DNA of 63,629 nucleotides, counting the filler, from Collodictyon triciliatum (taxonomy: Eukaryota), in the NCBI GenBank assembly GCA_043381765.1. It is 12 parts of 12 records of this genome, joined end to end, with 100 filler letters (N's around TTAATTAATTAA, not from the genome) between each part and the next. Parts side by side here need not be neighbours in the genome. Positions count along the whole stretch, not along the records: positions 23,274 to 28,513 come from JBHJMP010005353.1; 11 more parts are not named here. One strand, given 5' to 3'. This document shows positions 4,986 to 33,852 of this stretch, piece after piece (within the stretch, counting starts at the first letter, position 1; every line of letters starts with the position of its first letter). The position numbers and the translations under genes were made by a program. The notes under the pieces are model-generated. The model was not told the DNA's origin and did no database searches. It saw nothing but the letters and a program-made list of their open reading frames with translations.

Positions 4986-5007
4986 GTTGGACTTGTTTAA
5001 TTTTTCT

Positions 5008-5017
5008 TTATATAGGG
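5008..5017 (-). promoter_or_regulatory. TATA box (CCCTATATAA) ~35 nt upstream of the first array unit
   Basis: The same 10-mer lies upstream of the M12 protease genes (31128-31137 and 28659-28668). Confidence 0.55.
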
Positions 5018-5064
5018 CCGATGAGTGATTTATCCATCTTCGCACCGATATGTTTTTTCTTTTA

Positions 5065-5212
<148 letters not shown>

Positions 5213-5246
5213 TTTTTTTTTTTTTTTACTTTTTTTAATTTTTTTT

Positions 5247-5346
5247 NNNNNNNNNNNNNNNNNNNNNNNNNNNNNNNNNNNNNNNNNNNNTTAATTAATT
5301 AANNNNNNNNNNNNNNNNNNNNNNNNNNNNNNNNNNNNNNNNNNNN
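5247..5346. other. Artificial scaffold linker (N44-TTAATTAATTAA-N44); also at 10591, 15935, 23174, 28514, 33853, 39190, 44655, 49991, 55327 and 60662
   Basis: An identical 100-nt cassette with stops in all six frames occurs 11 times. Most intervening pieces are 5235-5246 bp, in descending order. Confidence 0.98.
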
Positions 5347-5347
5347 A

Positions 5348-8300
5348 TATGGAAACAAGTCATGCATAGAATGTCCACAAGGCACCTGGAATGATAAAGA
5401 CGGTCAAGCATCATGCACATCATGTCCACCTGGCACATTCAACGATAAAACTGGGTCATTCAATCAATCATCATGCATTTCATGTCAAAACGGAAGCTAC
5501 AGCTTAAGTGGGAGTACATCATGCAGCTTATGCTTATCAGGATTCTATCAAAAAGAAGGAATAATGAAAGACCCAAAATCATGCTATGCTTGTTCAAAAG
5601 GCACATTCAACTCAAACTCCGGCTCATATGGAAATACATCATGTATTGAATGTCCAAAAGGCACTTGGAATGATAAGGATGGTCGGGCATCATGCACGTC
5701 ATGTCCAGCTGGGACATTCAACGATAAAACTGGCTCATATAATCTATTATCATGCATTACGTGTCCTAATGGAAGCTACAGCTCAGATAGAAGCTCATCA
5801 TGCAGCTTGTGTTCATCAGGATTCTATCAAAAAGAAGGAGTAATGAAAGACTCGAAATCATGTCATACATGCCCAAAAGGCACATTCAACTCAAACTCCG
5901 GCTCATATGGAAATAAATCGTGTATTGAATGTCCACAAGGCACTTGGAATGATAGAGATGGTCGGGCATCATGCACATCATGTCCAGCTGGTACATTCAA
6001 CGATAAAACTAAGTCATTCAATCAATCATCATGCGTATCATGTTCAAATGGAAGCTACAGCTTAAGTGGGAGTACATCATGTATCTCATGCTTATCAGGA
6101 TTTTATCAAAAAGAAGGAGTAATGAAAGACCCAAAATCATGTCATACATGCCCAAAAGGCACATTCAACTCAAACTCCGGCTCATATGGAAACAAGTCAT
6201 GCATCGAATGTCCACAAGGTACTTGGAATGATAAGGATGGTCAAGCATCATGCACATCATGTCCACCTGGCACATTCAACGACAAAACTGGCTCATATAA
6301 TCTATTATCATGCATCACATGTTCAAATGGAAGCTACAGCTTAAGTGGAAGTGCGTCATGCAGCTCATGCTTATCAGGATTCTATCAAAAAGAAGGAATA
6401 ATGAAAGACCCAAAATCATGCTACACTTGTCCAAAAGGCACATTCAACTCAAACTCCGGCTCATATGGAAAAAAGTCATGTACTGAATGTCCACAAGGCA
6501 CTTGGAATGATAAAGATGGTCAAGCATCATGCACATCATGTCCAGCTGGTACGTTCAACGATAAAACTGGCTCATATAATCTATTATCATGCATTACGTG
6601 TCCTAATGGAAGCTACAGCTCAGAAAGAAGCTCATCATGCAGCTTGTGTTCATCAGGATTTTATCAAAAAGTAGGAATCAAAAAGGACTCCCAATCATGC
6701 TATGCATGTCCAAAAGGCACATTCAACTCGATGTTCGGCTCATATGGAAATAAATCATGTATTGATTGTCCACAAGGTACTTGGAATGATATAAATGGTC
6801 AAGCATCATGCACATCATGTCCAGCTGGTACGTTCAACGATAAGGCTGGCTCATTTGATGAATCATCATGCATTTCATGTCCAAATGGAAGCTACAGCTC
6901 CGAGAGAAGCGCATCATGCAGTTCGTGTTCACCAGGATTCTATCAAAAAGAAGGAATCACAAAAGACTCACAATCATGCTATGCTTGTCCAAAAGGCACA
7001 TTCAACTCAATCTCCGGCTCATATGGCAAAAAATCGTGCATTGAATGTCCACAAGGTACTTGGAATGATAGGGAGGGTCAAGCATCATGCACATCGTGTC
7101 CAGCTGGTACATTCAATAACAAAACAGGCTCATTCAATCAATCATCATGTATTTCATGTCCAAACGGAAGTTACAGCTCTGAAAGAAGCGCATCATGCAG
7201 TTCGTGTTTATCTGGATTTTATCAAAAAGAAGAAATTATAAAAGACTCAAGCTCATGCTATGCTTGTTCAAAAGGCACATTCAACTCAAACTCCGGCTCA
7301 TATGGAAACAAATCATGTATTGAATGTCCACAAGGTACTTGGAATGATAGAGATGGTCAAGTGTCATGCACATCATGTCCAGCTGGTACATTCAACGATA
7401 AGGCTGGCTCATTCAATCAATCATCATGCATTTCATGTCAAAATGGAAGCTACAGCTCCGAAAGAAGTGCTTCGTGTATCCTATGCTCACCAGGATTCTA
7501 TCAAAAAGATGTAATCATGAAAGACTCGAAATCATGCTACGCTTGTCCAAAAGGCACATTCAACTCAAACTCCGGCTCATATGGAAACAAATCATGTATT
7601 GAATGTCCACAAGGTACTTGGAATGATAGGGAGGGTCAAGCATCATGCACATCATGTCCAGCTGGTACATTCAACGATAAGGCTGGCTCATTCAATCAAT
7701 CATCATGCATTTCATGTCAAAATGGAAGCTACAGCTTAACTGGAAGCGCATCATGCAGTCTGTGCTTATCAGGATTATACCAAAAAGAAGATATCACAAA
7801 AGATTCACAATCATGCTACGCTTGTCCAAAAGGCACATTCAACTCAAACTCCGGCTCATATGTAAACCAATCATGCATTGAATGTCCACAAGGTACTTGG
7901 AACGATAGAGATGGTCAAGCATCGTGCACATTATGTCCAGCTGGTACATTCAATAACAGAACTGGCTCATTTAATGAATCATCGTGCATTTCATGTCCTA
8001 ATGGAAGCTACAGCTCAGAGAGAAGCGCATCATGCAGCTTATGCTTATCGGGATTTTATCAAAAAGAAGAAATCACAAAAGATTCACAATCATGCTACGC
8101 TTGTCCAAAAGGCAAATTCAACTCAAAATCCGGCTCATATGGAAATACATCATGCATTGAATGTCCACAAGGTACTTGGAACGATAGAGATGGTCAAGCG
8201 TCATGCACATCATGTTCAGCTGGCACATTCAATAACAGCACTGGCTCATTTGATGAATCACCGTGCATTTCATGTCCAAACGGAAGCTTCAGCTCAGAAA

Positions 8301-10590
8301 GAAGCTCATCATGCAGTTTATGCTCATCAGGATTATATCAAAAAGAAGGAATTACAAAAGATTCACAATCATGCTACGCTTGTCCAAAAGGCACATTCAA
8401 CTCAAACTCCGGCTCATATGGAAACCAATCATGCATTGAATGTCCACAAGGTACTTGGAACGATAGAGATGGTCAAGCGTCATGCACATCATGTTCAGCT
8501 GGCACATTCAATAACAGAACTGGCTCATTTGATGAATCATCGTGCATTTCATGTCCAAACGGAAGCTACAGCTTAAGTGGAAGTTCATCTTGTAGCTTAT
8601 GCTTATCAGGATTATACCAAAAAGAAGATATCATAAAAGATTCAAATTCATGCTACACTTGTCCAAAAGGCACATTCAACTCAAACTCCGGCTCATATGG
8701 AAACAAATCATGTATTGAATGTCCACAAGGTACTTGGAATGATAGAGATGGTCAGGCATCGTGCACATCATGTCCAGCTGGTACATTCAACAATAAAACT
8801 GGCTCGTTTGATGAATCATCATGCATTTTATGTCCAAACGGAAGCTACAGCTCAGAGAGAAGCTCATCATGTAGCTTATGCTTATCAGGATTATACCAAA
8901 AAGAAGATATCACAAAAGATTCAAATTCATGCTATTCTTGTCCAAAAGGCACATTCAACTCAAAATCCGGCTCATATGGAAACAAATCATGCATTGAATG
9001 TCCACAAGGTACTTGGAATGATAGAGATGGTCAAGCATCGTGCACATCATGCCCAGCTGGGACATTCAGTAACAAATCTGGCTCATTCAATCAATCATCA
9101 TGCATTTCATGTCAAAATGGAAGTTACAGCTCAGAGAGAAGCTCATCATGCACATCATGTTCACCAGGATTCTACCAAAAAGAGGAAATCACAAAAGACT
9201 CAAAATCATGCCATGCTTGTCCAAAAGGCACATTCAACTCAAAATCCGGCTCATATGGAAACAAATCATGTATTGTATGTCCACAAGGTACTTGGAATAA
9301 TGATGATGGTCAAACATCATGCACATCATGTCCAGCTGGTACATTCAACAACAAATCTGGCTCATTCAATCAATCATCTTGCATGTCATGTCCAAATGGA
9401 AGCTACAGCTCAGAAAGAAGCTCATCATGCAGTTTATGCTTATCAGGATTCTATCAAAAAGAAGATATCATAAAAGACTCAAATTCATGCTATTCTTGTC
9501 CAAAAGGCACATTCAACTCAAAATCCGGCTCATATGGAAACAAATCATGTATTGAATGTCCACAAGGCACTTGGAATGATAAGGATGGCCAAGCATCGTG
9601 CACATCATGTCCAGCTGGTACATATAACAACAAAACTGGCTCATTCAACCAATCATTGTGCATCCAATGTCCAAACGGAAGCTTCAGCTCATCTGGAAGT
9701 GCATCATGCATCTTATGCTTATCAGGATTCTATCAAAAAGAAGGAATCACAAAAGATTCGGAATCATGCTATTCTTGTCCAAAAGGCACATTCAACTCAA
9801 AATCCGGCTCATATAGAAACAAGTCATGCATTGAATGTCCACAGGGCACTTGGAATGATAAGGATGGCCAAGCATCGTGCACATCATGCCCAGCTGGTAC
9901 ATTCAACAACAAAACTGGCTCATTCAACCAATCATTGTGCATTTCATGTCCAAATGGAAGCTACAGCTCAGAAAGAAGCTCATCATGCAGCTTATGTTTA
10001 TCAGGATTCTATCAAAAAGAAGGAATCACAAAAGACTCAAAATCATGTTATGCTTGTCCAAAAGGCACATTCAACCCAAACTCCGGATCATATGGAAATA
10101 AATCATGCATGGAATGTCCACAAGGCACATGGAATGATAGAGATGGTCAAGCATCGTGCACATCATGTCCAGTTGGTACGTTCAACAACAAAACTGGCTC
10201 GTTCAATCAATACTCATGCATTTCATGTCAAAATGGAAGCTACAGCTCAGAAAGAAGCGCATCATGCACATTATGTTCATCAGGATTCTATCAAAAAGAG
10301 GAAATCACAAAAGACTCAAAATCATGCTATGCTTGTCCAAAAGGCACATTCAACTCAAACTCCGGCTCATATAGAAACAAATCATGTATTGAATGTCCAC
10401 AAGGTACTTGGAATGTTAAGGACGGTCAAGCATCGTGCACATCATGTTCAGCTGGAACATTTAACAATAAAACTGGCTCGTTCGATATATTTTCGTGCAT
10501 TTCATGCCCAAATGGAAGCTACAGCTCAGAAAGAAGCGCATCATGCAGCTTATGTCCGACACGCTCAACCACAATTAAAGAAGGCTCCAA
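5348..10590 (+). CDS. Cys-rich repeat surface/secreted protein fragment (CxxC-xxG-(Y/F/W) ephrin-receptor-like/GCC2_GCC3 repeats); both ends missing
   Basis: One open frame across the whole scaffold, with about 18-19 units of 279 bp (93 aa). Each unit has five CxxC motifs and several N-x-S/T sequons. Confidence 0.92.
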
Positions 10591-11051
10591 NNNNNNNNNN
10601 NNNNNNNNNNNNNNNNNNNNNNNNNNNNNNNNNNTTAATTAATTAANNNNNNNNNNNNNNNNNNNNNNNNNNNNNNNNNNNNNNNNNNNNAAAAAAAGAA
10701 AAAGAAAAAGAAAAAGAAAAAGAAAAAGAAAAAAAAGAAAAAAAAGAAAAAAAAAGAAAAAAAAAAGAAAAAGAAAAAGAAAAAGAAAAGAAAAGAAAAG
10801 AAAAGAAAAAGAAAAAGAAAAAGAAAAAAAAGAAGAGGGAAATCTAATCAATGTATAATCCATATAATTTTTTTTTTTTTTTTGCACAATCAGTTTATGT
10901 CTGTTTTCAAATCGAGAATATAGAAACGAGAAACATCCTATCACGATAAAGGATGATTGGGCCGTCTGTTCTCTAAGCCTATCGAGCTCAACCCATCTTA
11001 ATTGATATCCATGGTATTTGTTCCGTTCTCAATTTCAGCATGGATGATAAC

Positions 11052-14000
11052 CTAGTCAAACAATGTATTCATCCACCGCCTTTGGTTATGAAGGACGATG
11101 CTATTGGTTCCATAGGCTTCTTCCAGAATGGGCAAAGCATCTTTTATGAGATTCTGAGCGTCCATCTTTTCTCCTACTTCATGTTTCATCCTTGCGAGCT
11201 GAATCAATAACCTACCCGAATGAGGGTGAACGTATCCAAGCAGTTTGGAGCGTCTGGAGAGCAGAGCAACCATTCTGTCGCAGCATTTATGATCTTTGCT
11301 CGAATTAAAGTCCAAAAGGCAGTTTTCCACTTCTAACGAAATCAAGAGAGGATGGTCATCTACCCACCACTGTTTTGCCGACTGCAGCGTCTCCAAAACA
11401 AAGCTTTTCGCTTCCCGACCCTCACCCCGAGTACGAAGAATGGAAGAAAGAATCAAAGCACAAGTTACTCTTTCCAACCGATAGCAACTCCAATCAGCAG
11501 ATTTAAATATGCCACACAAACTATTTGGGTTCTCCTCACCGCCAGAGTGATAGCGACATCCTATGAGAAGTATTTGCACCAAGATAACCAATGGATGTTG
11601 TGCCGAGTAGAGTTCACTTCGGATCGATAGTGCCCTTTCCAAATGCCCTGCACACAAAATTGTTTCTTCTAATTCCATATTTATTTGCGCAAGACCCTGG
11701 AAAGAATCAGCTAAATCACAATGTAAAGATGGGAGGGCGGATTCACGATTCACGAGTGACTGTCTGTATGAGTCAGATGCTCTAGAATACTGTCCCAAAT
11801 CTGTTTGCAACGACCCGATGAGGGATAAAGTTTGTGCTAGTCGTGGGTCCCGGGGATCTGATGATTTTTCTTGCAAGTTGAGAGCTTCCATCATTAAACT
11901 CAAGGCTGGGCGATATTTTCCCATCAAACGGTACACAGAAGCAGTTATGTGACATGCATATACTACTTTGATGTCGTCATCTGAGTGTCTTTCTCTTGTT
12001 TTCAATAAATGCGTTTCGGCACAAGACGATGCATACTTCCATTGCCCTATGGTCAGAAACACTTCAATAAAAACTACGCTGATGTCAAAATTCCAGTGAG
12101 GTTCAAACATCTCATGTATTTTTTTCACTAGTGATACGTCTTTTTGATATGCGAGACGCAAGATGATAGAATACTTCTTGGTATCGCTCACAAAACATTC
12201 GAATAAGTCACGTCTGAATAAGCGAAGAAGTGGCGAAGAATCCTTTAGACTGACCAAGTACTGAGCCAATTGAAAATACACATTTGCTTTTGTTTGTCCT
12301 TGAGGGATGTCACCCAGGCGATGAATAAGAAGATTCACATAATTCAAGCGAGGGTCACTCGGAAATTTGCGTTTTAGAATATCAAATGCCACTCTTCTGA
12401 TAAACCCATGCGAGAACTGAATGGTTCGGTCTCTAACCCGAAATAAAACCCCAAATTTCTTCAAGAAGGCAGAGTATATGCATGACGGTATTTCAAGCTG
12501 CCTGATGAGTTCAGACTCGTCTAATCCAGATGTTGCAGCAGAGAGATAACGGAAAAATCCCACGGCCACTGACTCATATTGGGCAAGAATCAGCTGTAAT
12601 ACACAATCGGTCAAATCATACATATTCCTGGCCTTTGACAACACCAAGGCGCGGTCTGTCATTTTTCCTTGCAGTAAATGCAACCCAACAGAAAACAACT
12701 GAGCAAAAAGTGGATTACCCTTGCAAACTGGATACATGATATCCACCACTTGTGGAATCCATGGATTGTCTGGCTCTATATTCATCATGAGAGTCTGTAT
12801 TTCACTCAAAGACCAAGAAGGTATTTCAAACACTTTCCAGCCTCTTGACTGAGCTATGGCAATATGATTGCTGTCAGAAGAAACCAAAACTATTTTTACT
12901 CCCTTTGAGAGCTTGTTTGGTACCCATGAGAATATCTGCTCATTTATGTTACTGCTTGCAAAATCGCCTAAATCATCTACAAAGAAGGTAGAAAATGACA
13001 ATTGGCTCTGAAGCAATAGGATATAACGGAAAAAGTTTGTATCCGGTTGTTCGTAAGTCCATACCCCTGGCACTTTGAGGATTTCCCTCTGCATCATGCT
13101 CGAAGTCAACTGTTTTTTAAATTTGTCTAGCATCGTTTCGAAATATGCGTTCTCGGGGTGTTTTGTAGTGGAGAAGTAGTATATCCCGCTGTCACCTTGG
13201 TCGTGTAGTTGGTGATAGTAATTTGTTAGCATGAAAGATTTCCCAGAACCAGGAGGACCATAAATCAAGACGGGTTGATTGGACGTGTCAATGCACTGCG
13301 TAAGTTGAAAAAGAGCCCCTTCCCTGTCAACCTGTTGCTCAGACGTATTGCATCCGAAAAAATCTTCCATGGATCTATGGCCTCCAGATAAACGATGCTC
13401 CAATATTTTAGTGTCACTCTTGAGTTTCTAGTAATAGTGGCATTTATTAGTGTTATAATTTATATATATATATATTTGTGGATCACATGTATTATGTAAG
13501 AGTGAGGCTACTGAACTGATATTATATCTTCACATATTCTCTCAACCAGCTGCTCTATTGAGCTATATTCAACAGTTGGGAACTTTGTGGAGACAAGGTT
13601 TCTCAAGGCGGGTTGTTTCTTTCGAGAATCAGCTGATGACCAATAATCCGGCTGTTCTTGGTCCTGATAATTATTGATAAAAGTTTTTTTTTTAGATGAA
13701 TGAGTGAGTCAAAGCAATGATAAAGGTTGAAGTTTAAATGGTACAATAGAAATGAAATAGGCGATGAAGTCGCTATGAAGTTACTTCAGATTTCATGTAG
13801 AAGAATCCACGGTTACAAGAAGGAATAGGTGCCATAGATGCCAGTCTTATCTAAAAATTAACAAAAAAAAAAATAATACATAAACGTAATCTACATATTA
13901 TTTCTCGATTCATATGATTCTAATCATAAGGAAAATACGATTATCAAACTATACTAATTATAAAGGGGCAAGTCCATTAAATCGTTCACTTAATGAACTG

Positions 14001-15427
14001 CAGTGTCTAAAAGAAGAGACAGAAACAGAAACAGAAACAGAAACAGAAACAGAAACAGAAACAGAAACAGAAACAGAAACAGAAACAGAAACAGAAACAG
14101 AAACAGAAACAGAAACNACAGAAACAGAAACAGAAACAGAAACAGAAACAGAAACAGAAACAGAAACAGAAACAGAAACAGAAACAGAAACAGAAACAGA
14201 AACAGAAACAGAAACAGAAACAGAAACAGAAACAGAAAAGGAAAAAGCGAGAAAATAATAGAAAAAGAAAAAAAGATGATGAAAAGGGAAAAAAAATAGA
14301 GAAGCACATGAAAACACATAACATCATGTAAAAGACACATCTCGGTCCTGCACAAAAGTTGAAAGGAAGAATAAAAAAAAAATGTAAAAGACACATACTT
14401 CCACTTCAGATGTGCTCAAATCTTCCATTTCGGCTAGCTCTGGAAAGTCTATGATAAGTTCGGGTGTAGTGACTTCCGAGTCGTGTTCATTAGGCACTGC
14501 ACCGTAACGAGAGCCAACCAAAGCGACAAAGTAATGGGATTCGCGCAAGAGCCTCAGATTTCTAAGCCTTTTGCAGCCAAAGACCCTTGTGTAGAACGGG
14601 TTTGTGGGCCACGTGAGAGAATCCATCAGCGTAGGCCCGGCCAGCGGGACAGAAGGAATGAGCGGGTCGATGGAGGCCACAGACACGAGCGACTGAGGTG
14701 ATTGGCCCGAGGCAAAAGACGGTGTTCGGGACATGAGAAGGCCTTCCACAGCAACGGCGTCAATTGTATGCGTGACCGGGCGGATTGGATCCGAGGCCCT
14801 GAGACTCCACTCTGTGTCCTCATCGGCCACAACAATGAGTCCGATGCGATGGTGATCAGCCCAGCGGAGCAGCCTGGGGATTATCTCCCGCTGCATGGCA
14901 GCCATCTCCCTGACCAAAGACGAGTCACCCACAGAAAAGTAGATGCGAATCATTGCCCCGGCCACGTCGCCGCCAAAGGGCTTCAGCAGAGTCCCTGTCT
15001 CTGCCGCTTTTGCAGGCTCGTCCTCTTGCGGCTGGACCAGAGAGTCCGGAATCGATGGCGAAAGCATCGGCAGCCGCGGCGGCGCAGAGTCTGCGGCGTT
15101 GTCCAGGATGGAGCTTTGGATGCAGTTGATGGCCGGGGACGGTGATTGCACAAAAAGATACCGTGTGTTGGGGGATTCCATCGCGCCCGAAAGAAGGACG
15201 CGCCCGGCAACGCCGCTGTCTGATTCGGTTGTGAATGAAGCCTCAGCATCTGCGTTTGTGTTTGTGTTTGCGTTTGTGTTTGCGGCTGGTGCGTTCATTG
15301 GCTGCTTATCTGGGCCGTGTGCTTTTGCTGCTTCGGCAGAGGGCTTTGCGCTTGATTTGCGGCGCGGAGCAGACTTTGCGGCTGCCTCTGGAGACGCTGA
15401 TCGGCCCAGTGAGGCGCAGCTGCCCAT
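11052..15427 (-). CDS. NPHP3/TTC41-like DUF4062-NACHT/AAA-TPR protein, ~4 exons (15427-14399, ~13850-13785, ~13660-13517, ~13428-11052)
   Basis: Starts MGSCAS. DUF4062-like segments IRIYFS...REIIPRL and YFVALVGSRYG...STSEVE. Walker A GPPGSGKS, Walker B FFVDDL, C-terminal kinesin-light-chain-type TPRs. GT-AG boundaries; internal exon edges are approximate. Confidence 0.8.
14018..14237. repeat. (GAAACA)n microsatellite in intron 1 of the NPHP3-like gene
   Basis: Direct hexamer repeat. Confidence 0.97.
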
Positions 15428-16035
15428 TGCGACCTTGGCGAGGAACGTGGTGTGAAAAGATTTCTTCATTTCTTACTTTCCTTCTCCTCTGACTTTTATA
15501 TTTTTTCTGGTTTCTTTACTTTTTCTCTCTCTCTCTCTTTTTTTTTTTAAAAAAAAATAACGGGTTGTTTTGATGGGTGATGAATGAAAGCGTTTTGCTT
15601 TGTTTCCTTCTGTGTGTTTATGGCTATGTGTAATTATCGACGGAGAGTTTGTGAGTCGATCTCCTTGGACTTTGTTTGAGTTCGGACTTTGATTCCCTTT
15701 TGGATGCGCGATTGGGAGAGAAAGAGAGAAAAAGGCAGCATCAAAAGAAATAAGAAAGAAAGAAAAAAAAAGTAACTATGTCCTGGCGCTGCGTCTCTAC
15801 AGTTACGTACATTGTCATTCAAACCAAAAGAAACAAAACAAAACAAAACAAAACAAAACAAAACAAAACAAAACAAAACAAAACAAAACAAAACAAAACA
15901 AAACAAAACAAAACAAAACAAAACAAAACAAAACNNNNNNNNNNNNNNNNNNNNNNNNNNNNNNNNNNNNNNNNNNNNTTAATTAATTAANNNNNNNNNN
16001 NNNNNNNNNNNNNNNNNNNNNNNNNNNNNNNNNNT

Positions 16036-21920: not shown

Positions 21921-23790
21921 TGCGGATTTCGATCGATGTATAGGTCATTGTACACACCTTAATTATGTACAAATAGATCTCTGTTAGCTACCCCTCCTTA
22001 TGACTGGTTTTGGCTGTGGTATATTACATCAAATGAGAGTGTATCGAGAGCCATGATTGTCGATTCTTCTTGCAGAGTTTTAATTTCATCTATGGTCTCT
22101 GAGGTGATATTTGAAATCTGATTGCTTTCGATCTCCAGCATTAGACTTCCTTTATTGCTTATACGATTCCAATAAACTATCTTCGTGCAACATGCAAATA
22201 TCAAAAGGTCATTTCTCATAGGACTCACCATTTAAGCAAGGATTAATGGCGAACAGCAGGTCATCCATCTGGAGCATAATATCTCAAAATGCGAAAAATT
22301 TGATGGACTCGTACCCTCTGAATCCATCAGCCTCTTCTGATTTAAAGGAAAAGGTTAGTTATTAGAAAAAAAAAATTTTTTTTTGAAAGTTTGACTTTAT
22401 ATATCACTGATTATCGTAATCCCACTCTTACATACGGTAAATTGTGACTCTGCAGATTACCAGGACATTAGAATTCTCGCCAATTGATTCAACATTTACT
22501 CTCGTTGTATGTATTCGTTTGATTCGCATCCCTGGGGGAGGTTGCTTGATCACCTATTTCAACATCGTGCGTAATCGTTACTTTCATATTTTACCACTGA
22601 TGGTATTATCTGATTATATCAATATGTTTTCTTATCTTCGCCCTTTTCAGGCGATGCATACATCAGTAATATTTAAAGTTTTGCATAAACGAATAATACA
22701 ATTCTAATTCTAATTTATTCGAATCGTATGGCTCTCGATCATCACAATAACTATATATATATAAAAAAAACAGAAGAAAGGTTAGCTCTTCAGCACCATA
22801 ATTTATATAATCTATCAGAGTCAATTCCATTTTTCTTTTCTTCTATTTGATTTTATTATATAAAAAAGTAGCTTCTAGTGCTCATATGTACCTCACTGAT
22901 TCGGCATTAACATTCTATGAAAGATTCTGCACCACATATTAATCCAGGTTCTTTGGGATATCGAGCTGTTAATTCAGAATCTATCCCTTCGAAGCTACTG
23001 GAATCCATTCATGGGACAGGTTAGTAATTCGCCAGCTAAGGCCTACCTTGTATCCCCCACCCCCCACCCTCATCTTTCTTCTTTTTTCTTCTTTTTTCTT
23101 CTTTTTTCTTCTTTTTTCTTCTTTTTTCTTCTTTTTTCTTCTTTTTTCTTCTTTTTTCTTCTTTTTTCTTCTTNNNNNNNNNNNNNNNNNNNNNNNNNNN
23201 NNNNNNNNNNNNNNNNNTTAATTAATTAANNNNNNNNNNNNNNNNNNNNNNNNNNNNNNNNNNNNNNNNNNNNAAAGGAAAAGAAAAGGAAAAGAAAAGA
23301 AAAAAAAAGGAAAAGAAAAGGAAAGGAAAGGAAAGAAAAGAAAAAAGGAAAGGAAAAAGAAAAGAAAAGAAAGGAAAGGAAAGGAAAGGAAAAGAAAAGG
23401 AAAAAAAAGGAAAAGAAAAGGAAAGGAAAGGAAAGAAAAGAAAAAAGGAAAGGAAAAAGAAAAGAAAAGAAAGGAAAGGAAAGGAAAGGAAAGGAAAGGA
23501 AAGGAAAGGAAAGGAAAGGAAAAGAAAAGGAAAAGAAAAGAAAAGGAAAAGAAAAGGAAAAGGAAAAGGGAAAAGAAAAGGAAAAGGATTCAACAAAATC
23601 AAATAGATATGTTTTCATTTTTGTGTTTTTATTCTGTTTTCATGGAGCGTCCTTCTGGGAAAAAGCGGAGGTCTGCTTGAAAAAACCCAGAGAATCCCCT
23701 CCATCTAAAATAAATGAAATTAAGGAACATGTATTCATATGCATTTACTAATATTACTTACCTTGTTAAGCTCAGGCTTTCTTTCTCCAC

Positions 23791-23808
23791 TCAGCTGCTT
23801 TCATCGTT

Positions 23809-23846
<38 letters not shown>

Positions 23847-26800
23847 TATTATTATTATCATCATCTCGTAACACAAAGTTTTCTGCTTTTGCAAACCACT
23901 CAGCAGCTCTCTCGGTGTCCTTCTCAACACTCCATCCATTCTCATAGCATTCAGCAATAATAGAAACAGCCTGTGGATATTTGTGTTCACCATAATCCTC
24001 GTCTACAATTTCAGCCATTTCTTTCAAGACATTGAATGCCTCTTTTGAACCTTGTTGTGCGTGTTGCTTCATTTTGTCAAAGTTTCCAGTCTTTTTTAGC
24101 CATTCAGCTACTTTCTCGATGTCCTTCTCAACACCCCATCCATTCTCATAGCATTCAGCAACAATAGAAACAGCCTGTGGATATTTGTATTTTTCACCAA
24201 TTTTGTCTCCATACTCCAGAATATCCTTCTTCATTTCAGCCATTTCTTTCAAAACATTGAATGCCTCCTTTGAGCCTTGTTGTGCGTGTTGCTTCAGTTT
24301 GTCAAATTTTTCAGCTTTTCCAAGCCACTCGATAGCTCTCTCGGTGTCCTTCTCAACATCCCATCCATTCTCATAGCATTCAGCCATCATTTGAGCCTGG
24401 AACGTGGTGAACTCACCCTGCTCACAATAGGCAGCAAAGTCCGCATCAAAGGAAGCAGCACCCTCTTGCAGGAATAGTTTCTTGTTCATTGCATCCAGTT
24501 CAGCTCTGTTGATATGAGTGTTCGCAGCTTCAAGCTTTCTTGGGCCGATAATTCGAACAGTTCTCACGTTCATTATTCTGCTTGTATCAATCATATTCAT
24601 CGCATCACTTGTACTATTGAATACTGTGATGACTTCTGGTTTATCTTTCATGACCAATTGGCTCTTCTCATTGTAGGTCGCTTCTGATATTTTCAGGCTG
24701 TGTATTTGGTTTCCTGTGGCTACATCCCAAATGCGTATCGTGCTATCTCCACTTCCAGAAGCCAGCCAATTTTCACCATTCGGTCCTTGAATACTGCAAA
24801 CACTCATGACAATATTTGTATGACCTTCTAATGTTTTGATTTGGTTTCCTGTGGCTACATCCCAAATACGTATTGTATTATCTCGACTTCCAGAAGCTAA
24901 CCAATTTTCACGATTCGGTCCTTGAATACTGCAAACACTCTTGACATCATCTGTATGACCCTCTAATGTTTTGATTCGGTTTCCTGTGGATACATCCCAA
25001 ATACGTATTGTTTTATCATAACTTCCAGAAGCCAGCCAATTTTCACCATTCGCTCCTTGAATACTGCAAACACTATTGACTGGCTCTGTATGACCTTCTA
25101 ATGTTTTGATTTGGTTCCCTGTGGCTACATCCCAAATACGTATTGTATTATCAACACCTCCAGAAGCCAACCACTTTTCACCATTCGGACCTTGAATACT
25201 GCAAACACTCATGACCCAGCTTGTATGACCTTCTAATGTTTTGATTTGATTTCCTGTGGATACATTCCAAATACGTATTGTTGTATCATAACTTCCAGAA
25301 GCCAGCCAATTTTCACCATTCGGACCTTGAATACTGCAAACACTACTGACATAATGTGTATGTCCTTCTAATGTTTTGATATGGTTTCCTGTAGCTACAT
25401 CCCAAATACGTATTGTATTATCTTCACCTCCAGAAGCCAACCACTTTTCACCATTCGGCCCTTGAATACTGCAAACACTCATGACCCAGCTTGTATGACC
25501 TTCTAATGTTTTGATTTGATTTCCTGTGGATACATCCCAAATACGTATTGTTTCATCACGACTTCCAGAACCTAGCCACTTTTCACCATTCGGTCCTTGA
25601 ATACTGCAAACGCTGACGACAGCTTCTGTATGTCCTTCTAATGTTTTGATTTGGCTTCCTGTGGATACATCCCAAATACGTATTGTCTTGTCTTCACCTC
25701 CAGAAGCCAGCCATTTTTCACCATTCGGTCCGTGAATGCTGCAAACACTCATGACAGCACTTGTATGTCCTTCTAATGTTTTGATTCGGCTTCCTGTGGA
25801 TACATCCCAAATACGTATCGTCTTATCATGACTTCCAGAAGCCAACCAATTTTCACCATTCGCTCCTTGAATACTGCAAACACTATTGACTGGCTCTGAA
25901 TGGCCTTCTAATGTTTTTATTTGGCTTCCTGTGGCTACATCCCAAATACGTAATGTTTTATCATAACTTCCAGAAGCCAACCAGTTTTCACCATTCGGTC
26001 CTTGAATACTGCAAACACGATAGACAGCGCTTGTATGTCCTTCTAATATTTTGATATGGTTTCCTGTGGCTACGTCCCAAATACGTATTGATTCATCACC
26101 ACTTCCAGAAGCCAACCACTTTTCACCATTCGGTCCTTGAATACTGCAAATACTCTTGACATCATCTGTATGACCCTCTAATGTTTTGATTCGGTTTCCT
26201 GTGGATACATCCCAAATACGTATTGTTTTATCACCACTTCCAGAAGCTAACCAATTTTCACCATTCGGTCCTTGAATACTGCAAACACTCATGACTGGCT
26301 CTGTATGACCTTCTAATGTTTTGATATGGCTTCCTGTGGATACATCCCAAATACGTATTGATTCATCATCACTTCCAGAAGCCAGCCAATTTTCACCATT
26401 CGTAACTTGAATACTGCAAACACTATTGACTGGCTCTGAATGGCCTTCTAATGTTTTTATTTGGCTTCCTGTGGCTACATCCCAAATACGTAATGTTTCA
26501 TCACGGCTTCCAGAAGCCAGCCAATTTTCACCATTCGGTCCTTGAATACTGCAAACACTATTGACAGAACTTGTATGTCCCAAAAACAAAGGCAAGCGAC
26601 CAAAATTAACGCCTTTCATATTTGCATGATCAAAAACACAGTTGGAAATGCACGCATTATAGAACAAAACACCCTCCAAGTTGGCACCAGTGAAGTCAGC
26701 ACCATCAGCAACAGACTGTGACATATCGGCATCTGGAATTTGAATCCCTCTGAAATCCATTCCACTGAATGAAACATCAGCATAGTTCAGAATTGTGATG

Positions 26801-28513
26801 GCATTTGATGCAGCTTGCGCTTTGCTTGCATCTACCTTGGACTGCTCAATAATTGAAAACAGATTGTCTTTGTAGGCATTGTCTTTGTTCACTTTTTCAC
26901 TCAGGTTGAGCAGAATGGCAGGCTCAAGCTTTTTATCCAGAACATTTGTCTTCACTTTTGATTTCATCACAGAATGAACAGCATTGAAAAGCTTGAAGCT
27001 TGGTGATTTCGCATCAGATTTTTCAGGCATAGAATTCGCGGCTTCAGAGGACTTTGGAACATTTTGAGCTTCAGTTGATGGTTGGGTAGTATCTTGATTT
27101 TCGCCACCGGAACCATTGATTTCATCTTTGATGTATTCAGCAGCAAAGAATTCGTAGAGCGATTTGTGGAAGAACTCATACGTTGTGGCACTAGATTTCT
27201 TAATGGGTGCACATCGCAATACAAAGACAGAGTAAGTTGGCTCACCATCAATCATATGGTTTGGATTAGGATGGAAAAATTCGTCATATTCGTGCTTCTT
27301 TGCTTTCCCCTCAACTTTGTCGTACTCCAAAGCAAGATGGCCTTTCTGGAACATGACTTCCGCAATATCTTTGCACTTCACCCATAGCAATGCTGGCAAA
27401 TCCTGAGGCATTTTCTGTTTCAATGACAAATTTTCTTCAAGCTTTTCTTTTTCGCGCTCAAACCAACTCTCAGAGAACTTCTTTAGAAAGTCTGTTCGCA
27501 GCATCTTTGCGTTATCTTTTGACTTCGACTCAGCTCTTTCCTTCAGTATGGACGGCAGGGTGGTGGCTGCCATGAAAATCATAAACGGAGTGACGGCCAA
27601 TTCGTCTAGCTCCTTGATTTTCTTCAACTCTTCCTCATACTTTTCTCCTTTTTCCCATCCTTCAATGGGATTTCTCTCAGCATACTTGTTGAAGTAATCA
27701 AGCCTTTGCTTAGTTTCAAAAGGTCTTAGATATATTTCATCCAGAGAGTATCCATGACTGGCTTTGGGTGCAAATAGCGATTGGTACTGAGATTTTTTGT
27801 CCAAAAACTGCTTTCGGCATCCAATCACAAACTTGCAGTTGGGCCATTCTTCAAGCTTATTTGAAATATAGAAAGATGTACCATTATCTTCAATCTCATC
27901 ATAACCATCCAGAAAAATGATGAATTTCATCTTTTTCAATTCTTTTATTTGGTCGATTCGAAAATCAGAGTCTGGGATGTAGAAGCTGTTTTTACTCTCA
28001 GAATGAAGCAGTTCCTCGATGGCGTTTTCTCTGGGCTTTTCCAATGAAGTGAGCGCAGCATACAAAGGAATATGCGTTCCGTATTTATGTTTATACTTTT
28101 CCCAAAGCAATCGCACAATAAACTGCTGTAACCATGATTTTCCAGAGCCAGAATCGCCAAGTATGAGCAGCACTTTTTCATTTCCAGATGTGATGAAATT
28201 CAGGATGTATTCTTGGGCATCAAACACTTTTCCTTTCTCAGCAACTCTTTCGGCTTGACCGGGAATATATGTGTTAAAACGACTTTTGAATTCTTCATTT
28301 CGAATGGTCTCCTCCTTGATATTCTCGACGATTTCTTGAATTGTTCTTTCGTCTTTACCAGCTTTTTCAAAAAGTGCAGTAGGTAATTTTGACTCTTTTG
28401 GCTTATATTTTGCCATTTCTTGCTTTTTTGATTCCACAAATCGATTAATAACCTCACTTTTCAACCATTTTTCATGACGTGTGATATGCTCCATTAATTC
28501 ACGGACTTTTTGT
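23791..28513 (-). CDS. NLR-like STAND protein: NACHT, pentapeptide repeats, 14 WD40 repeats, 3 SEL1-like repeats; 5'-truncated at the scaffold edge
   Basis: Walker A GDSGSGKS, Walker B IIFLDGYDE, FFHKSLYEFFAA, AASNAITILN followed by pentapeptides, 14 GH...WD units, and three AECYENGWxVEKD repeats. The frame stays open to the scaffold end; no introns. Confidence 0.93.
24700..26580 (-). repeat. 14 highly similar 135-bp (45-aa) WD40 coding repeats
   Basis: 135-bp periodicity (e.g. ATCCCAAAT at ~24724 and ~24859). Confidence 0.95.
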
Positions 28514-28613
28514 NNNNNNNNNNNNNNNNNNNNNNNNNNNNNNNNNNNNNNNNNNNNTTAATTAATTAANNNNNNNNNNNNNNNNNNNNNNNNNNNNNNN
28601 NNNNNNNNNNNNN

Positions 28614-29696: not shown

Positions 29697-31079
29697 TTAG
29701 CAGGTAAGGTTCTTGATGAAGCCGGTGACCTCGCTGATTGTGCGCGAGTGGAAGGCCATCTGGATGTTTGTCAGTCCACCAGAGCACTGATGGCAATACG
29801 ACATGATTGTTCCGCGGGTGGCGCTGCAGCCGGGGGTGGAGCCGCAGTAGTCAGCAGGAGGGTTAAGCTCGTGGGTGTGCGAACCTCCGAAGACGTGGCC
29901 GACCTCGTGGGCGAACACGTAGATGTCCCAGTTCTGTCCGTTGTAGTTCTGGACTGGGGTGGGGAAGTAGCCGACCATGTTGCCGTTGATGGCGTAGGCA
30001 TAGTTGGTGTTGCAGAGGACGCGAACATAGGCGATGCCTCCACCAAGATTCTTGGCAGAGACAAGGGCGGCCAGCGAGCGGCTGGGTGTGCTGGGGCTCC
30101 AGGTGCGACGCATGTAGTCCAGAGCCTGCGAGGCAGAGCAGCAAGGGTAGCCGTCGGGGCTGGTGAAGATCTTCATGTAGACAGAGGAGAGGCCTGATGC
30201 GAAGTCGCGGGCGTAGATCGAGTGGGTGGCACCAATCAGTGTCGAGTAGAAGCTGGCAGTGGCGTCGTAGCTGGAACTCTTCTTGCGGTACATGTCGTAG
30301 TCGACATCAGAGGCGACGCGGAAGACACGGCGAGTGCGACCATCAGCGGTGGTTCCAACAACCTCGGAGTACTGCATCATGGCCTCGCTGGGAACCGAGA
30401 GCGAGTCCGTTCCGTGGGTGGGGAAGTTGGGCATCTGGATGTTCATGCCAGTGGCCTCAAAGACAACAGAGGCGCGGACATTGGCGTTGGTGGACGACAG
30501 AGCGACAGCTTGCTTGCCAAGAAGGCTCACATACTCATCCATGCGCAGCTGGTCGGCGCTGATGTTCTCCTGCTCGTGTGGCTGCGACTCCCAGGGAGTG
30601 GACAGGATGAACGTGCGGTTGCCAATCTGAGCATACCCGTTCGAGCCGTGCACACTCAGGGACAGGAACACGTACGAGCCCTCGGCCTCGGCAGTAGCCA
30701 GGGTGCGGCCCTCCAGAGCAGAGAGCTTTCCGTGGAGCAGCATGACGCTGGCGGCCTTCTCGGCATCGCCTCCATCAGCCTCGGCAACGACGGAGAAGCG
30801 CTCCAGCGACAGGTCAGCCTCAACACCGACACCCAGAGGGAAGGCGGCCACGCGGAGTGGCTGGTTGAGGGGGACGCTGGCAAGGCCGGCTCCGGTGCGA
30901 AGAGTCTCGGAGAGGACCAGGCACAGACCACGGCCGCTGGGGTCGCGGCCGCAGCGGCTGAAGGGCGAGGCAACAGTCAGAACCTGGCTGCTGCTGGCGG
31001 GGCGGAAGGGGACGCTCAGGACGGCGCTGAGGGCGGCCAGGAGGACGAGGCCGACGGCGAGGGAGGAGCGGCGGACCAT
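29697..31079 (-). CDS. Secreted M12 (reprolysin-like) zinc metalloprotease, copy 1, intronless
   Basis: Signal peptide, HEVGHVFGGSH (HExxHxxGxxH), Met-turn GTIMSYC, and an upstream TATA box. Confidence 0.93.
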   Translation of the reverse strand: MVRRSSLAVGLVLLAALSAVLSVPFRPASSSQVLTVASPFSRCGRDPSGRGLCLVLSETLRTGAGLASVPLNQPLRVAAFPLGVGVEADLSLERFSVVAEADGGDAEKAASVMLLHGKLSALEGRTLATAEAEGSYVFLSLSVHGSNGYAQIGNRTFILSTPWESQPHEQENISADQLRMDEYVSLLGKQAVALSSTNANVRASVVFEATGMNIQMPNFPTHGTDSLSVPSEAMMQYSEVVGTTADGRTRRVFRVASDVDYDMYRKKSSSYDATASFYSTLIGATHSIYARDFASGLSSVYMKIFTSPDGYPCCSASQALDYMRRTWSPSTPSRSLAALVSAKNLGGGIAYVRVLCNTNYAYAINGNMVGYFPTPVQNYNGQNWDIYVFAHEVGHVFGGSHTHELNPPADYCGSTPGCSATRGTIMSYCHQCSGGLTNIQMAFHSRTISEVTGFIKNLTC

Positions 31080-31127
31080 TCTGTTGGGGTTGGATGTTTT
31101 ACATTGTGTTTGGAGAGTGGCTGGGGG

Positions 31128-32877: not shown

Positions 32878-33852
32878 TTAGCAGGTAAGGTTCTTGATGA
32901 AGCTGGTGACCTCGCTGATTGTGCGCGAGTGGAAGGCCATCTGGATGTTCGTCATTCCACCAGAGCACTGATGGCAGTACGACATGATTGTTCCGCGGGT
33001 GGCGCCGCAGCCGGGGGTGGAGCCGCAGTAGTCGGCAGGAGGGTTGAGCTCGTGGGTGTGCGAGGCTCCGAAGACGTGGCCGACCTCGTGGGTGAAGACG
33101 ATGATGTCCCAGTTCTGGCTGTTGTAGTTCTGGACTGGGGTGGGGAAGTAGCCGACCATGTTGCCGTTGATGGCATAGGCATAGTTGGTGTTGCAGAGGA
33201 CGCGGTAGTAGGCGATGCCTCCACCAAGATTCTTGGCAGAGACCAGAGCGGCCAGCGAGCGGCTGGGTGTGCTGGGGCTCCAGGTGCGGCGCATGTAGTC
33301 CAGAGCCTGCGAGGACGAGCAGCAAGGGTAGCCGTCGGGGCTGGTAAAGATCTTCATGTAGACAGAGGTGAGGCCAGACGAGAAGTCGCGGGCGTAGATC
33401 GAGTGGGTGGCACCAATCAGTGTCGAGTAGAAGCTGGCAGTGGCGTCGTAGTTGGAGCCCTTCTTGCGGTACATGTCGTAGTCGACGTCAGAGGCGACAC
33501 GGAAGACACGACGGAGGCGACCATCAGCGGTGGTTCCAACAACCTCGGAGTACTGGGACAGAACCTCGCTGGGGGCAGAGAGCGAGTCCAGGCCGTGATT
33601 GGGGAAGATGGGCATCTGAATGTTCATGCCAGTGGCCTCGTAGACAACAGAGGCGCGGACATTGGCGTTGGTGGACGACAGAGCGACAGCCTGCTCACCA
33701 AGGGCGGTAACGTACTCGTCAATCTTCACTTGTTCGTAGCTCATCTTCTCCTGCTCGTGTGGCTGCGACTCCCAGGGAGTGGACAGGATGAACGTGCGGT
33801 TGCCAATCTGAGCATACCCGTTCGAGCCGTGCACACTCAGGGACAGGAACAC
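32878..33852 (-). CDS. M12 zinc metalloprotease, copy 2 (5'-truncated at the scaffold edge)
   Basis: Close paralogue of copy 1 with HEVGHVFGASH and a near-identical ~100-nt 3'UTR. Confidence 0.92.
   Translation of the reverse strand: MFLSLSVHGSNGYAQIGNRTFILSTPWESQPHEQEKMSYEQVKIDEYVTALGEQAVALSSTNANVRASVVYEATGMNIQMPIFPNHGLDSLSAPSEVLSQYSEVVGTTADGRLRRVFRVASDVDYDMYRKKGSNYDATASFYSTLIGATHSIYARDFSSGLTSVYMKIFTSPDGYPCCSSSQALDYMRRTWSPSTPSRSLAALVSAKNLGGGIAYYRVLCNTNYAYAINGNMVGYFPTPVQNYNSQNWDIIVFTHEVGHVFGASHTHELNPPADYCGSTPGCGATRGTIMSYCHQCSGGMTNIQMAFHSRTISEVTSFIKNLTC

Follow-up and report, generated by a model that had tools for sequence, protein, structure and literature searches.

A NACHT-pentapeptide-WD40 gene with hypervariable repeat positions in a Collodictyon triciliatum assembly, most likely encoding an NLR-type receptor

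Introduction

Some receptors consist of near-identical repeats that differ at a handful of hypervariable surface positions, and this architecture is on record for Dikarya fungi as well as for bacteria that are multicellular or endosymbiotic. Whether a protist makes use of the same design is the question raised by a gene in the genome assembly of Collodictyon triciliatum (GCA_043381765.1), in which one minus-strand reading frame encodes a NACHT domain, pentapeptide repeats (PPR), 14 WD40 repeats, a linker and three Sel1 repeats, in that order. The window, that is, the whole stretch of DNA that was analysed, is 63,629 nucleotides (nt) long, and the gene lies on the contig at 23274..28513 (JBHJMP010005353.1). 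Based on its sequence, the WD40-encoding region most likely specifies the end of an NLR-type STAND ATPase that senses the ligand. A literature search found no such receptor described in protists and no NLRs described in diphylleids; supplementary tables were outside the scope of this search, and the query combining CRuMs or Collodictyon with NLR was too broad. The design itself is known, and a non-fungal eukaryotic (protist) member extends its known range.

Repeat Structure and Hypervariable Positions of the WD40 Array

The region in question is the following, numbered along the protein by residue and within each unit by column:

24697..26586, minus strand: WD40 array of 14 units of 45 amino acids (135 nt), residues 637-1266; unit k starts at 26586-135(k-1)

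The protein contains 14 stretches that match the WD40 family PF00400 (E = 3.2e-137), and Tandem Repeats Finder describes the array as 13.8 copies of a 135-nt period with 86% matches and 0 indels. An initial annotation of the window, made from the sequence alone, had placed repeats at 24700..26580, and these are recovered here as 14 units of 45 amino acids each at 24697-26586 with 86% DNA identity. Pairwise nucleotide identity between units has a mean of 0.860 (range 0.79-0.96). At the amino acid level the mean is 0.79, and identity reaches 0.85 or more in 7 of the 91 pairs.

Differences between units are concentrated at columns 6, 7, 9, 28, and 30, each of which has more than 2 bits of entropy. 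The residues present are exactly those listed in the initial annotation: SS, EP, DD, SA, EA, SW, HY or NI at columns 6-7; N, M, K, Y, V or S at column 9; R, D, G, Y, H, E or V at column 28; and E, K, N, T or S at column 30. Identity is 0.17 at these five columns compared with 0.865 in the remaining 40, and the five-site combination is distinct in every one of the 14 units. The other loop columns (17, 21, 38, 41, and 42) are di- or trimorphic only.

An excess of non-synonymous change at the variable sites had been proposed as a check, and such an excess was found. Pairwise Nei-Gojobori comparisons of the units of this one gene give a non-synonymous divergence (dN) of 1.04 at the five hypervariable codons, compared with a synonymous divergence (dS) of 0.20, a dN of 0.065, and a ratio (omega) of 0.32 in the remaining 40 codons; dS between units overall is 0.20 to 0.24. 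Furthermore, when the minimum number of steps is counted column by column, which needs no tree, the five codons show 2.25 non-synonymous steps per site, compared with 0.93 synonymous steps for each site across all codons (ratio 2.4, binomial p = 0.0016), and these five of the 45 columns hold 52% of the minimum non-synonymous steps. Change at the five codons outpaces synonymous change in the rest of the WD40 repeat. This is a counting method applied to a single gene rather than a likelihood site model.

It is conceivable that the array was recently amplified from one blade, as in the bacterial WRAP-type propellers, and that without diversifying selection the least constrained loop residues drift neutrally. 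Sites that drift in this way can change no faster than the synonymous rate. The five codons surpass that rate, by a factor of 2.4 when minimum steps are counted (p = 0.0016) and of 5 in the pairwise comparison, and the remaining loop columns stay di- or trimorphic. The ratio dN/dS inside the five codons alone is 1.03, as neutrality predicts; this value arises because codons hit several times inflate their own synonymous count, and therefore the case for selection rests on the contrast with neighbouring codons. Amplification is described as a continuing source of highly repetitive propellers (Pereira & Lupas 2022, PMC9218822), and WRAP is the best structural match of the array (2ymu, E = 5.2e-32). 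However, the units of the window protein differ by a dS of 0.20, unlike WRAP, for which that source gives no synonymous substitutions, and a Diphylleia homologue with 14 diverged blades indicates that the blade number is old. Neutral drift following amplification is judged an improbable account of the five columns.

Structural Model of the Array

The placement of these columns was probed with a single-sequence AlphaFold2 model of residues 619-1290, which has a predicted local distance difference test score (pLDDT) of 73 and a predicted template modelling score (pTM) of 0.53. DSSP assigns the following strands to the unit in this model:

Columns 8-15: strand A
Columns 21-27: strand B
Columns 32-36: strand C
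Columns 41-45 (+1): strand D

By this assignment, the D-A loop contains columns 6-7, strand A has column 9 as its second residue, and the B-C turn contains columns 28 and 30. Variation is milder at columns 17, 21, 38, 41, and 42, which fall in the A-B and C-D regions of the model. The best Foldseek match of the model is WRAP (2ymu, 33% identity), followed by the double-propeller proteins Apaf-1 and Gemin5.

A structure model had been named as a check on the initial annotation, and its outcome is mixed: DSSP puts the five columns in or beside the D-A loop and B-C turn, and the proposed pair of seven-bladed propellers is not reproduced. Instead, the array is split 6+8, as eight units (model residues ~285-642) make up one propeller and six units are left for the other (VIA-align). 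The eight-unit propeller is best matched by eight-bladed proteins, namely Tako8 (Z 28.9, root-mean-square deviation 2.5, 318 residues aligned), as well as ODA16 and Fbw7/Cdc4. At the confidence of this model, the 6+8 partition is tentative.

The NACHT Switch Module

Upstream of the array, the protein contains the parts expected of a nucleotide-dependent switch and a connector:

27676..28173, minus strand: NACHT nucleotide-binding domain, residues 108-273 (Pfam PF05729)
27100..27675, minus strand: helical and winged-helix part of the NACHT module, residues 274-465, with invariant F441-x-H443-x-S445
26950..27099, minus strand: low-complexity linker, residues 466-515 (pLDDT <50 at model residues 463-515)
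26596..26784, minus strand: PPR, residues 571-633 (PF00805, E = 1.4e-7, 31.3 bits versus a cut-off of 20.2)

The match to PF05729 has an E-value of 6.3e-8 and a score of 33.1 bits versus a cut-off of 26.7. The domain contains a Walker A motif (GDSGSGKS, residues 113-120), a Walker B motif (LDGYDE, residues 195-200) and Arg227, and the residues G113, G116, G118, K119, D196, D199, E200, and R227 are at columns invariant in all 23 aligned sequences. This 23-row alignment of relatives is the basis for the invariant columns and for an AlphaFold2 model of residues 1-636 (pLDDT 78.3, pTM 0.76). The best Foldseek matches of the latter model are NOD2 (5irm, E = 9.5e-13), NLRC4 (4kxf) and the NLRP3 NACHT domain (template modelling scores of 0.56-0.60 on the target); animal NLRs account for 50 of 50 among the matches listed. 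The pentapeptide segment directly precedes the first WD40 unit and is kept in all close relatives.

Taken together, the protein has the NACHT motifs, the fold made up of a nucleotide-binding domain, a helical domain and a winged helix, and the C-terminal repeat sensor of an NLR, and its assignment as an NLR in the initial annotation is upheld by the NACHT score, the motifs invariant in 23 of 23 sequences and the resemblance of the fold to NOD2, NLRC4, and NLRP3. The NACHT-PPR-WD40 domain order is present as well, colinear with that in the relatives P0003 and P0013.

Proposed Mechanism of Recognition

The anatomy of the protein and its family resemblance suggest a mechanism in which the five positions of each blade are arrayed on the 'top' face of the propellers, where together they make up a binding surface. 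First, a ligand on this surface would release the NACHT domain, allowing nucleotide exchange and oligomerisation. Next, oligomerisation of the NACHT domain would activate the N-terminal domain, which lies beyond the contig and corresponds to a helical region of 370-650 amino acids in relatives. The surface itself would be diversified by point mutation and by the exchange of units or half-units, a combination of concerted evolution and diversifying selection like that of Podospora HET-E/HET-D. The likely role of such a protein would be non-self recognition, whether of a pathogen, virus, symbiont, prey or conspecific, and the family resemblance may point to innate immunity or allorecognition. 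The probability of this mechanism, in which mutation, unit exchange and selection diversify a binding surface on the top face and that surface drives the NACHT switch, is put at roughly 0.6.

Several points weigh against this reading. The 'top face' placement depends on loop identity and the literature together with a single-sequence model, and no arrangement like the 6+8 division of that model is known for the family. At 0.79, the mean amino acid identity between units falls short of the level at which Dyrka 2014 speaks of 'high internal conservation' (>85% over at least 100 amino acids), and the dN/dS inside the five codons taken alone is close to one. The array is read from one assembled sequence only, and the unit order is insecure because exact stretches shared between units (to 93 nt) could mislead a short-read assembler. 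The N-terminal domain, which would set the output of the receptor, lies beyond the contig. Contigs from RNA libraries that match the gene do not establish its transcription. Finally, the Diphylleia rotans label carried by the closest relatives is that of a culture transcriptome, and identities to the proteins of the window are just 33-41%.

Diversification of the surface could also serve an NLR-like switch in a non-immune role, such as scaffolding, symbiont control, development or mating, in which case the surface would keep pace with an endogenous partner that evolves quickly. Sel1 repeats are adaptor modules of a generic kind, PADLOC defence models gave no match to residues 1-636, and the symbiosis role of the related Mortierella and Mycoavidus NACHT-PPR-WD40 proteins is left undecided in the available text of Ciach 2024 (PMC11291939). 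However, the functionally characterised receptors of this design in the literature consulted act in non-self recognition or immunity (HET-E/HET-D, and WRAP with its proposed role in prokaryotic immunity), and 14 different site combinations fit a broad repertoire better than a single partner. A non-immune role is thus regarded as unlikely.

Comparison with Known Repeat-Based Receptors

The HNWD/NWD proteins of Podospora anserina (HET-E, HET-D, HET-R) resemble the window protein in possessing a NACHT domain followed by tandem, mutually similar WD40 units, and an excess of non-synonymous change and many site combinations are found in both. In HNWD, codons 7, 9, 25, and 27 are positively selected; they flank the conserved codons 8 and 26 and are located in the D-A loop and the B-C turn at the top of the propeller (Paoletti 2007, PMC1805685). 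The hypervariable codons 6, 7, 9, 28, and 30 of the window protein likewise stand beside a conserved residue, and its codons 28 and 30 correspond to HNWD codons 25 and 27 because of a three-residue insert in its A-B loop. The earlier claim that the variable sites are the selected HNWD positions holds up on this comparison, as codons 7, 9, 28, and 30 are equivalent (with codon 6 in addition) and DSSP places them in the same loops.

There are also important distinctions between the two. The unit is 42 amino acids long in HNWD and 45 in the window protein, the window protein adds a pentapeptide connector and a C-terminal Sel1 tail, and its unit amino acid identity is lower than that of HNWD. The NACHT domain belongs to another clade, with Diphylleia and Mortierellomycota nearest, and Podospora proteins are absent among the matches listed for the NACHT-PPR part. 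No HET domain is seen in the window protein because its N-terminus is missing.

The NACHT-PPR-WD40 architecture has been named in Mortierellomycota, where transfer from Mycoavidus was proposed (Ciach 2024, PMC11291939), and NLRs of Mortierellomycetes and Mycoavidus have an N-terminal helical domain of more than 500 amino acids, 'NLR_Helical' (Wojciechowski 2022, PMC9815663). The NLRs of Mortierellomycota, Mycoavidus, and Glomeribacter share the NACHT-pentapeptide-WD40 order with the window protein, and their NACHT-PPR parts are homologous to it over ~90% of the length at 26-31% identity. Additionally, the conserved repeats of several of these proteins vary at the same columns. In contrast to them, the window protein is outside their clade and has 45-residue blades and a Sel1 tail.

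WRAP, the STAND protein Npun_R6612 of Nostoc punctiforme (PDB 2ymu), combines a STAND ATPase with 14 near-identical C-terminal WD40 blades that have no synonymous differences and fold as 7+7 (Pereira & Lupas 2022, PMC9218822). It resembles the window protein in its blades, in its ATPase and as the top Foldseek match of the WD40 model, and an immune role has been proposed for it. WRAP differs in being bacterial, in its 7+7 fold where the model of the window protein is 6+8, and in its synonymous identity; blades without synonymous differences are not what the window array presents (dS 0.20 to 0.24 between units). Among eukaryotes, Ascomycota and Basidiomycota account for 84% of the highly repetitive propellers according to the same source.

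The design is less unusual than the initial annotation implied. A crude GH-anchored unit finder was applied to 223 proteins, of which 82 have at least four units. Mean unit identity is at least 0.7 in 22 of these 82 and at least 0.8 in 7, with the window protein included in the counts. The modal unit period is 42 amino acids in 70 of the 82 and 45 amino acids in two, which are the window protein and the Diphylleia protein P0072. Thus, 21 other proteins among the fetched relatives, bacterial ones included, have similarly conserved repeats, and in the eight examined (those with names being from Mycoavidus, Glomeribacter, and Mortierella) the most variable columns are drawn from 6, 7, 9, 25, and 27.

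As a separate observation, the chromosome OZ257148.1 (2.28 Mb) of a gammaproteobacterial metagenome-assembled genome encodes at least eight paralogues (L001-L008, 61-100% identity) of a NACHT-PPR-WD40 protein. The eleven blades of this protein are 42 amino acids long, 85% identical, and variable at columns 5, 6, 7, 9, 25, and 27.

Mosaic Units and Assembly

The motifs of the half-repeats recur in different combinations. The first-half motif EPN is found three times, with the second halves SDE, SHK, and SYK; DDK is found twice, with SGE and SRN; and SWM is found twice, with GEN and GVN. The best-matching partner differs between the first and the second half in 9 of the 14 units, and non-adjacent units have exact stretches of 93, 82, and 76 nt in common, which extend across unit borders. 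Exchange between repeats would leave such a mosaic. The recurrence of half-repeat alleles in new combinations, as initially described, is therefore present; the recombination attached to it is less secure, since the pattern comes from one assembly and may in part be an assembly effect.

Accordingly, the possibility must be weighed that the gene is real and that the number, order and mosaic pattern of its units are partly an artefact of repeat threading or paralogue collapse. The assembly is fragmented into pieces of ~5.2 kb with N gaps, the exact shared stretches are long, and short contigs from environmental runs fit two places (171 of 341 in run X3) or include in-register skips of 1080 and 1620 nt and a step back of 945 nt. 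Such an artefact is nevertheless rather unlikely. The frame is intact through all 14 units, no two of which are identical (maximum identity 96%), the independently assembled Diphylleia homologue also counts 14 blades, and the pattern of hypervariable columns is independent of unit order.

The in-register joints in the short contigs of public freshwater and 'organism A' runs (X1, X3) are within 24811-26572; the skips correspond to 8 and 12 units, and the step back, in one contig, to 7 units. These joints may be variants in the number or order of units or artefacts of graph assembly, and they are not counted as evidence of shuffling because a de Bruijn-graph artefact is possible. In the 3' flank, run X3 also gave a 63-nt skip with GT..AG ends on the strand of the gene; it was not counted as an intron, as it comes with five replaced letters and in one contig.

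Relatives and Origin of the Gene

The word-indexed search with the NACHT-PPR part returned 70 proteins of 24-39% identity, which belong mostly to Mortierellomycota, to Gigaspora, and to Mycoavidus and Glomeribacter, both endobacteria, and nearly all have NACHT, pentapeptide and WD40 parts. An exhaustive search of 1.84 billion representatives gave 4187 matches at E <=0.001 and 433 at E <=1e-30, none of them with an identity above 38% (the best have 33-38%), so that no near paralogue or orthologue is among them. The closest relatives are from the transcriptome of Diphylleia rotans (EukProt EP00002) and have 33-35% identity, with P0072 at rank 1 and P0076 at rank 5. P0072 is colinear with the window protein over query residues 3-1394 (its own residues 559-1925) at 33% identity, from the pre-NACHT segment to the start of the Sel1 region, and includes 14 units of ~45 amino acids, the same GPxGExW insert and the linker motif. 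The parts of P0076 are in the same order, with ~6 blades and many Sel1 repeats. In contrast to the window array, the blades of the Diphylleia proteins have diverged from each other, with per-unit hidden Markov model scores of 5-52 compared with 96-106 for the window units, and near-identity and focused hypervariability belong to the window gene. Therefore, the homogenised array is a trait of the lineage of the window gene over an older 14-blade scaffold.

A quick IQ-TREE phylogeny (61 rows x 530 columns, with the window protein and P0076 flagged for long branches and odd composition) groups the window protein with the two Diphylleia rows (SH-aLRT branch support 97). Fungi and endobacteria make up a 44-row clade (SH-aLRT 100), and the window protein is outside it. 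Additionally, the combination of a 45-residue blade, the linker and the Sel1 tail is common to the Diphylleia proteins only. The unique NACHT part of the gene is matched by short contigs of 97-100% identity in freshwater metatranscriptome and metagenome runs from several studies; other pieces from freshwater runs are ~90% identical, and the best runs share 0.05-0.16 of the sampled words, too little for any of them to be data of the source organism itself. On this sequence evidence, the most likely source of the gene is a freshwater protist of the CRuMs lineage that is related to Diphylleia yet distinct from the culture labelled Diphylleia rotans.

The named relatives are mostly from Mortierellomycota, Gigaspora, Mycoavidus, and Glomeribacter, and the spread of GC content among the contigs, from 0.32 to 0.51, means that the assembly may be mixed and hold more than one organism. 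Nonetheless, it is highly improbable that the contig derives from a contaminating Mucoromycota fungus or from one of the Burkholderia-related endobacteria of such a fungus. This suggestion conflicts with the identity of only 26-31% to the fungal and endobacterial proteins, with the position of the window protein outside their clade and alongside Diphylleia, with the features shared with Diphylleia proteins only, with the 313-nt (AAAAG)n microsatellite that flanks the gene, and with the matching sequence in freshwater runs. The non-fungal look of the source that was reported initially agrees with these results, in which the tree position is outside the fungal and endobacterial clade and both the best full-length relatives and the match of a second STAND-type gene are labelled Diphylleia rotans.

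This second gene is located on another contig of the window (11055-13427, minus strand) and encodes a P-loop NTPase with NPHP3-like TPR repeats. The only strong match of its open reading frame (ORF) is a Diphylleia rotans transcript, with 41% identity and 99% coverage. Upstream of it, a 382-residue ORF (14327-15472, minus strand) has no Pfam match.

A wider proposal is that NACHT-PPR-WD40(-Sel1) is an old eukaryotic NLR lineage surviving in CRuMs-type protists and not a bacterial invention passed from Mycoavidus to Mortierella. This proposal is doubtful at present. If it is true, a free-living unicellular predator would share the repertoire trick of filamentous fungi, in which blades are homogenised while top-face residues are selected apart, and would apply it in the recognition of viruses, intracellular bacteria or other cells. 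On this view, hypervariable NLR sensors with shuffled repeats would form a general strategy of eukaryotes, perhaps an ancestral one, that does not depend on a multicellular or syncytial way of life. The proposal that Mortierellomycota acquired these genes from endobacteria (Ciach 2024, PMC11291939) must now place a separate eukaryotic branch. The main interest of the gene is in the history of the NACHT-PPR-WD40 NLR family and in the immunity of unicellular eukaryotes, here in a little-studied supergroup. As a single gene that encodes 14 distinct putative variants of a binding site in a unicellular predator, it is a candidate for studies of immunity or of prey and symbiont recognition.

The Truncated N-Terminus

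The gene and its contig have the following features:

23274..28513: gene-bearing contig, 5240 bp, GC 0.393
23791..28512, minus strand: ORF of 1567 amino acids, with the ATG at 28494 and the stop codon at 23791-23793
28183..28494, minus strand: pre-NACHT segment, residues 1-104, helical in the model and homologous to P0072 residues 559-660
23274..23588: (AAAAG)n microsatellite, which occupies the 3' flank to the contig end

The frame is open for six codons upstream of the ATG and reaches to 1 nt from the contig end. Because of this open frame, and because the Diphylleia homologues continue N-terminally, the gene is probably truncated at its 5' end, with ~560 N-terminal residues absent. The N-termini of P0072 and P0076 are longer by 370-560 residues, and the pre-NACHT helical region of relatives comprises 370-650 amino acids. 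Pfam matches to the N-termini of P0072 and P0076 are sub-threshold only (PF23948 ARM_5, E = 0.33 and 0.011, and HEAT). That an N-terminal effector part is missing had been stated from the outset, and the frame running into the contig end and the alignment of query residue 3 with P0072 residue 559 agree with this. Its recovery, also suggested at that time, did not succeed, as a search of JGI metagenome contigs gave 105 pattern matches and no relatives.

The C-Terminal Region

Downstream of the array, the protein continues as follows:

24400..24696, minus strand: linker between the WD40 and Sel1 parts, residues 1267-1365, with the motif IIGPRKLE... common to P0072 and P0076
23875..24399, minus strand: three Sel1 repeats, residues ~1366-1540 (PF08238, E = 6.6e-19, three stretches), with the motif AECYENGWxVEKD...
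23794..23874, minus strand: acidic poly-Asp/Asn C-terminal tail, residues 1541-1567, with a period-3 repeat at 23801-23865

Sel1 tails are also present in P0072, P0076, and the Gigaspora protein P0053. The C-terminal 301 amino acids alone gave 46 matches, which are generic Sel1 proteins and one EukProt WD40/pentapeptide transcript (P0248). Among the environmental Sel1 proteins that resemble this tail (P0235-P0280), fusions to TIR_2 (PF13676), caspase (PF00656) or kinase domains are common, a pattern that hints that Sel1 repeats of this type travel with cell-death or conflict modules.

Other Parts of the Window

The window is made up of unlinked contigs of ~5.2 kb, ordered by falling length and separated by 100-nt spacers (44 N + TTAATTAATTAA + 44 N):

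5247-5346, 10591-10690, 15935-16034, 23174-23273, 28514-28613, and eight more: spacers

Because the contigs are unlinked, sequence neighbouring the gene-bearing contig has no positional meaning. At 1-5246, long overlapping minus-strand ORFs in several frames repeat MPEYDAVCFTH and HYAGIRRSLLH, and this stretch looks like a tandem satellite rather than genes. A cysteine-rich frame of 1747 amino acids at 5348-10588 (plus strand), open at both contig ends, contains 38 Ephrin_rec_like repeats (PF07699, E = 3.6e-285) and resembles a giant repetitive surface-protein gene. Two ORFs at 29700-31127 and 32881-33852 (both minus strand), where the contig GC is 0.51, encode reprolysin-like (M12B) metalloproteases, and the start of the ORF at 29700-31127 is signal-peptide-like.

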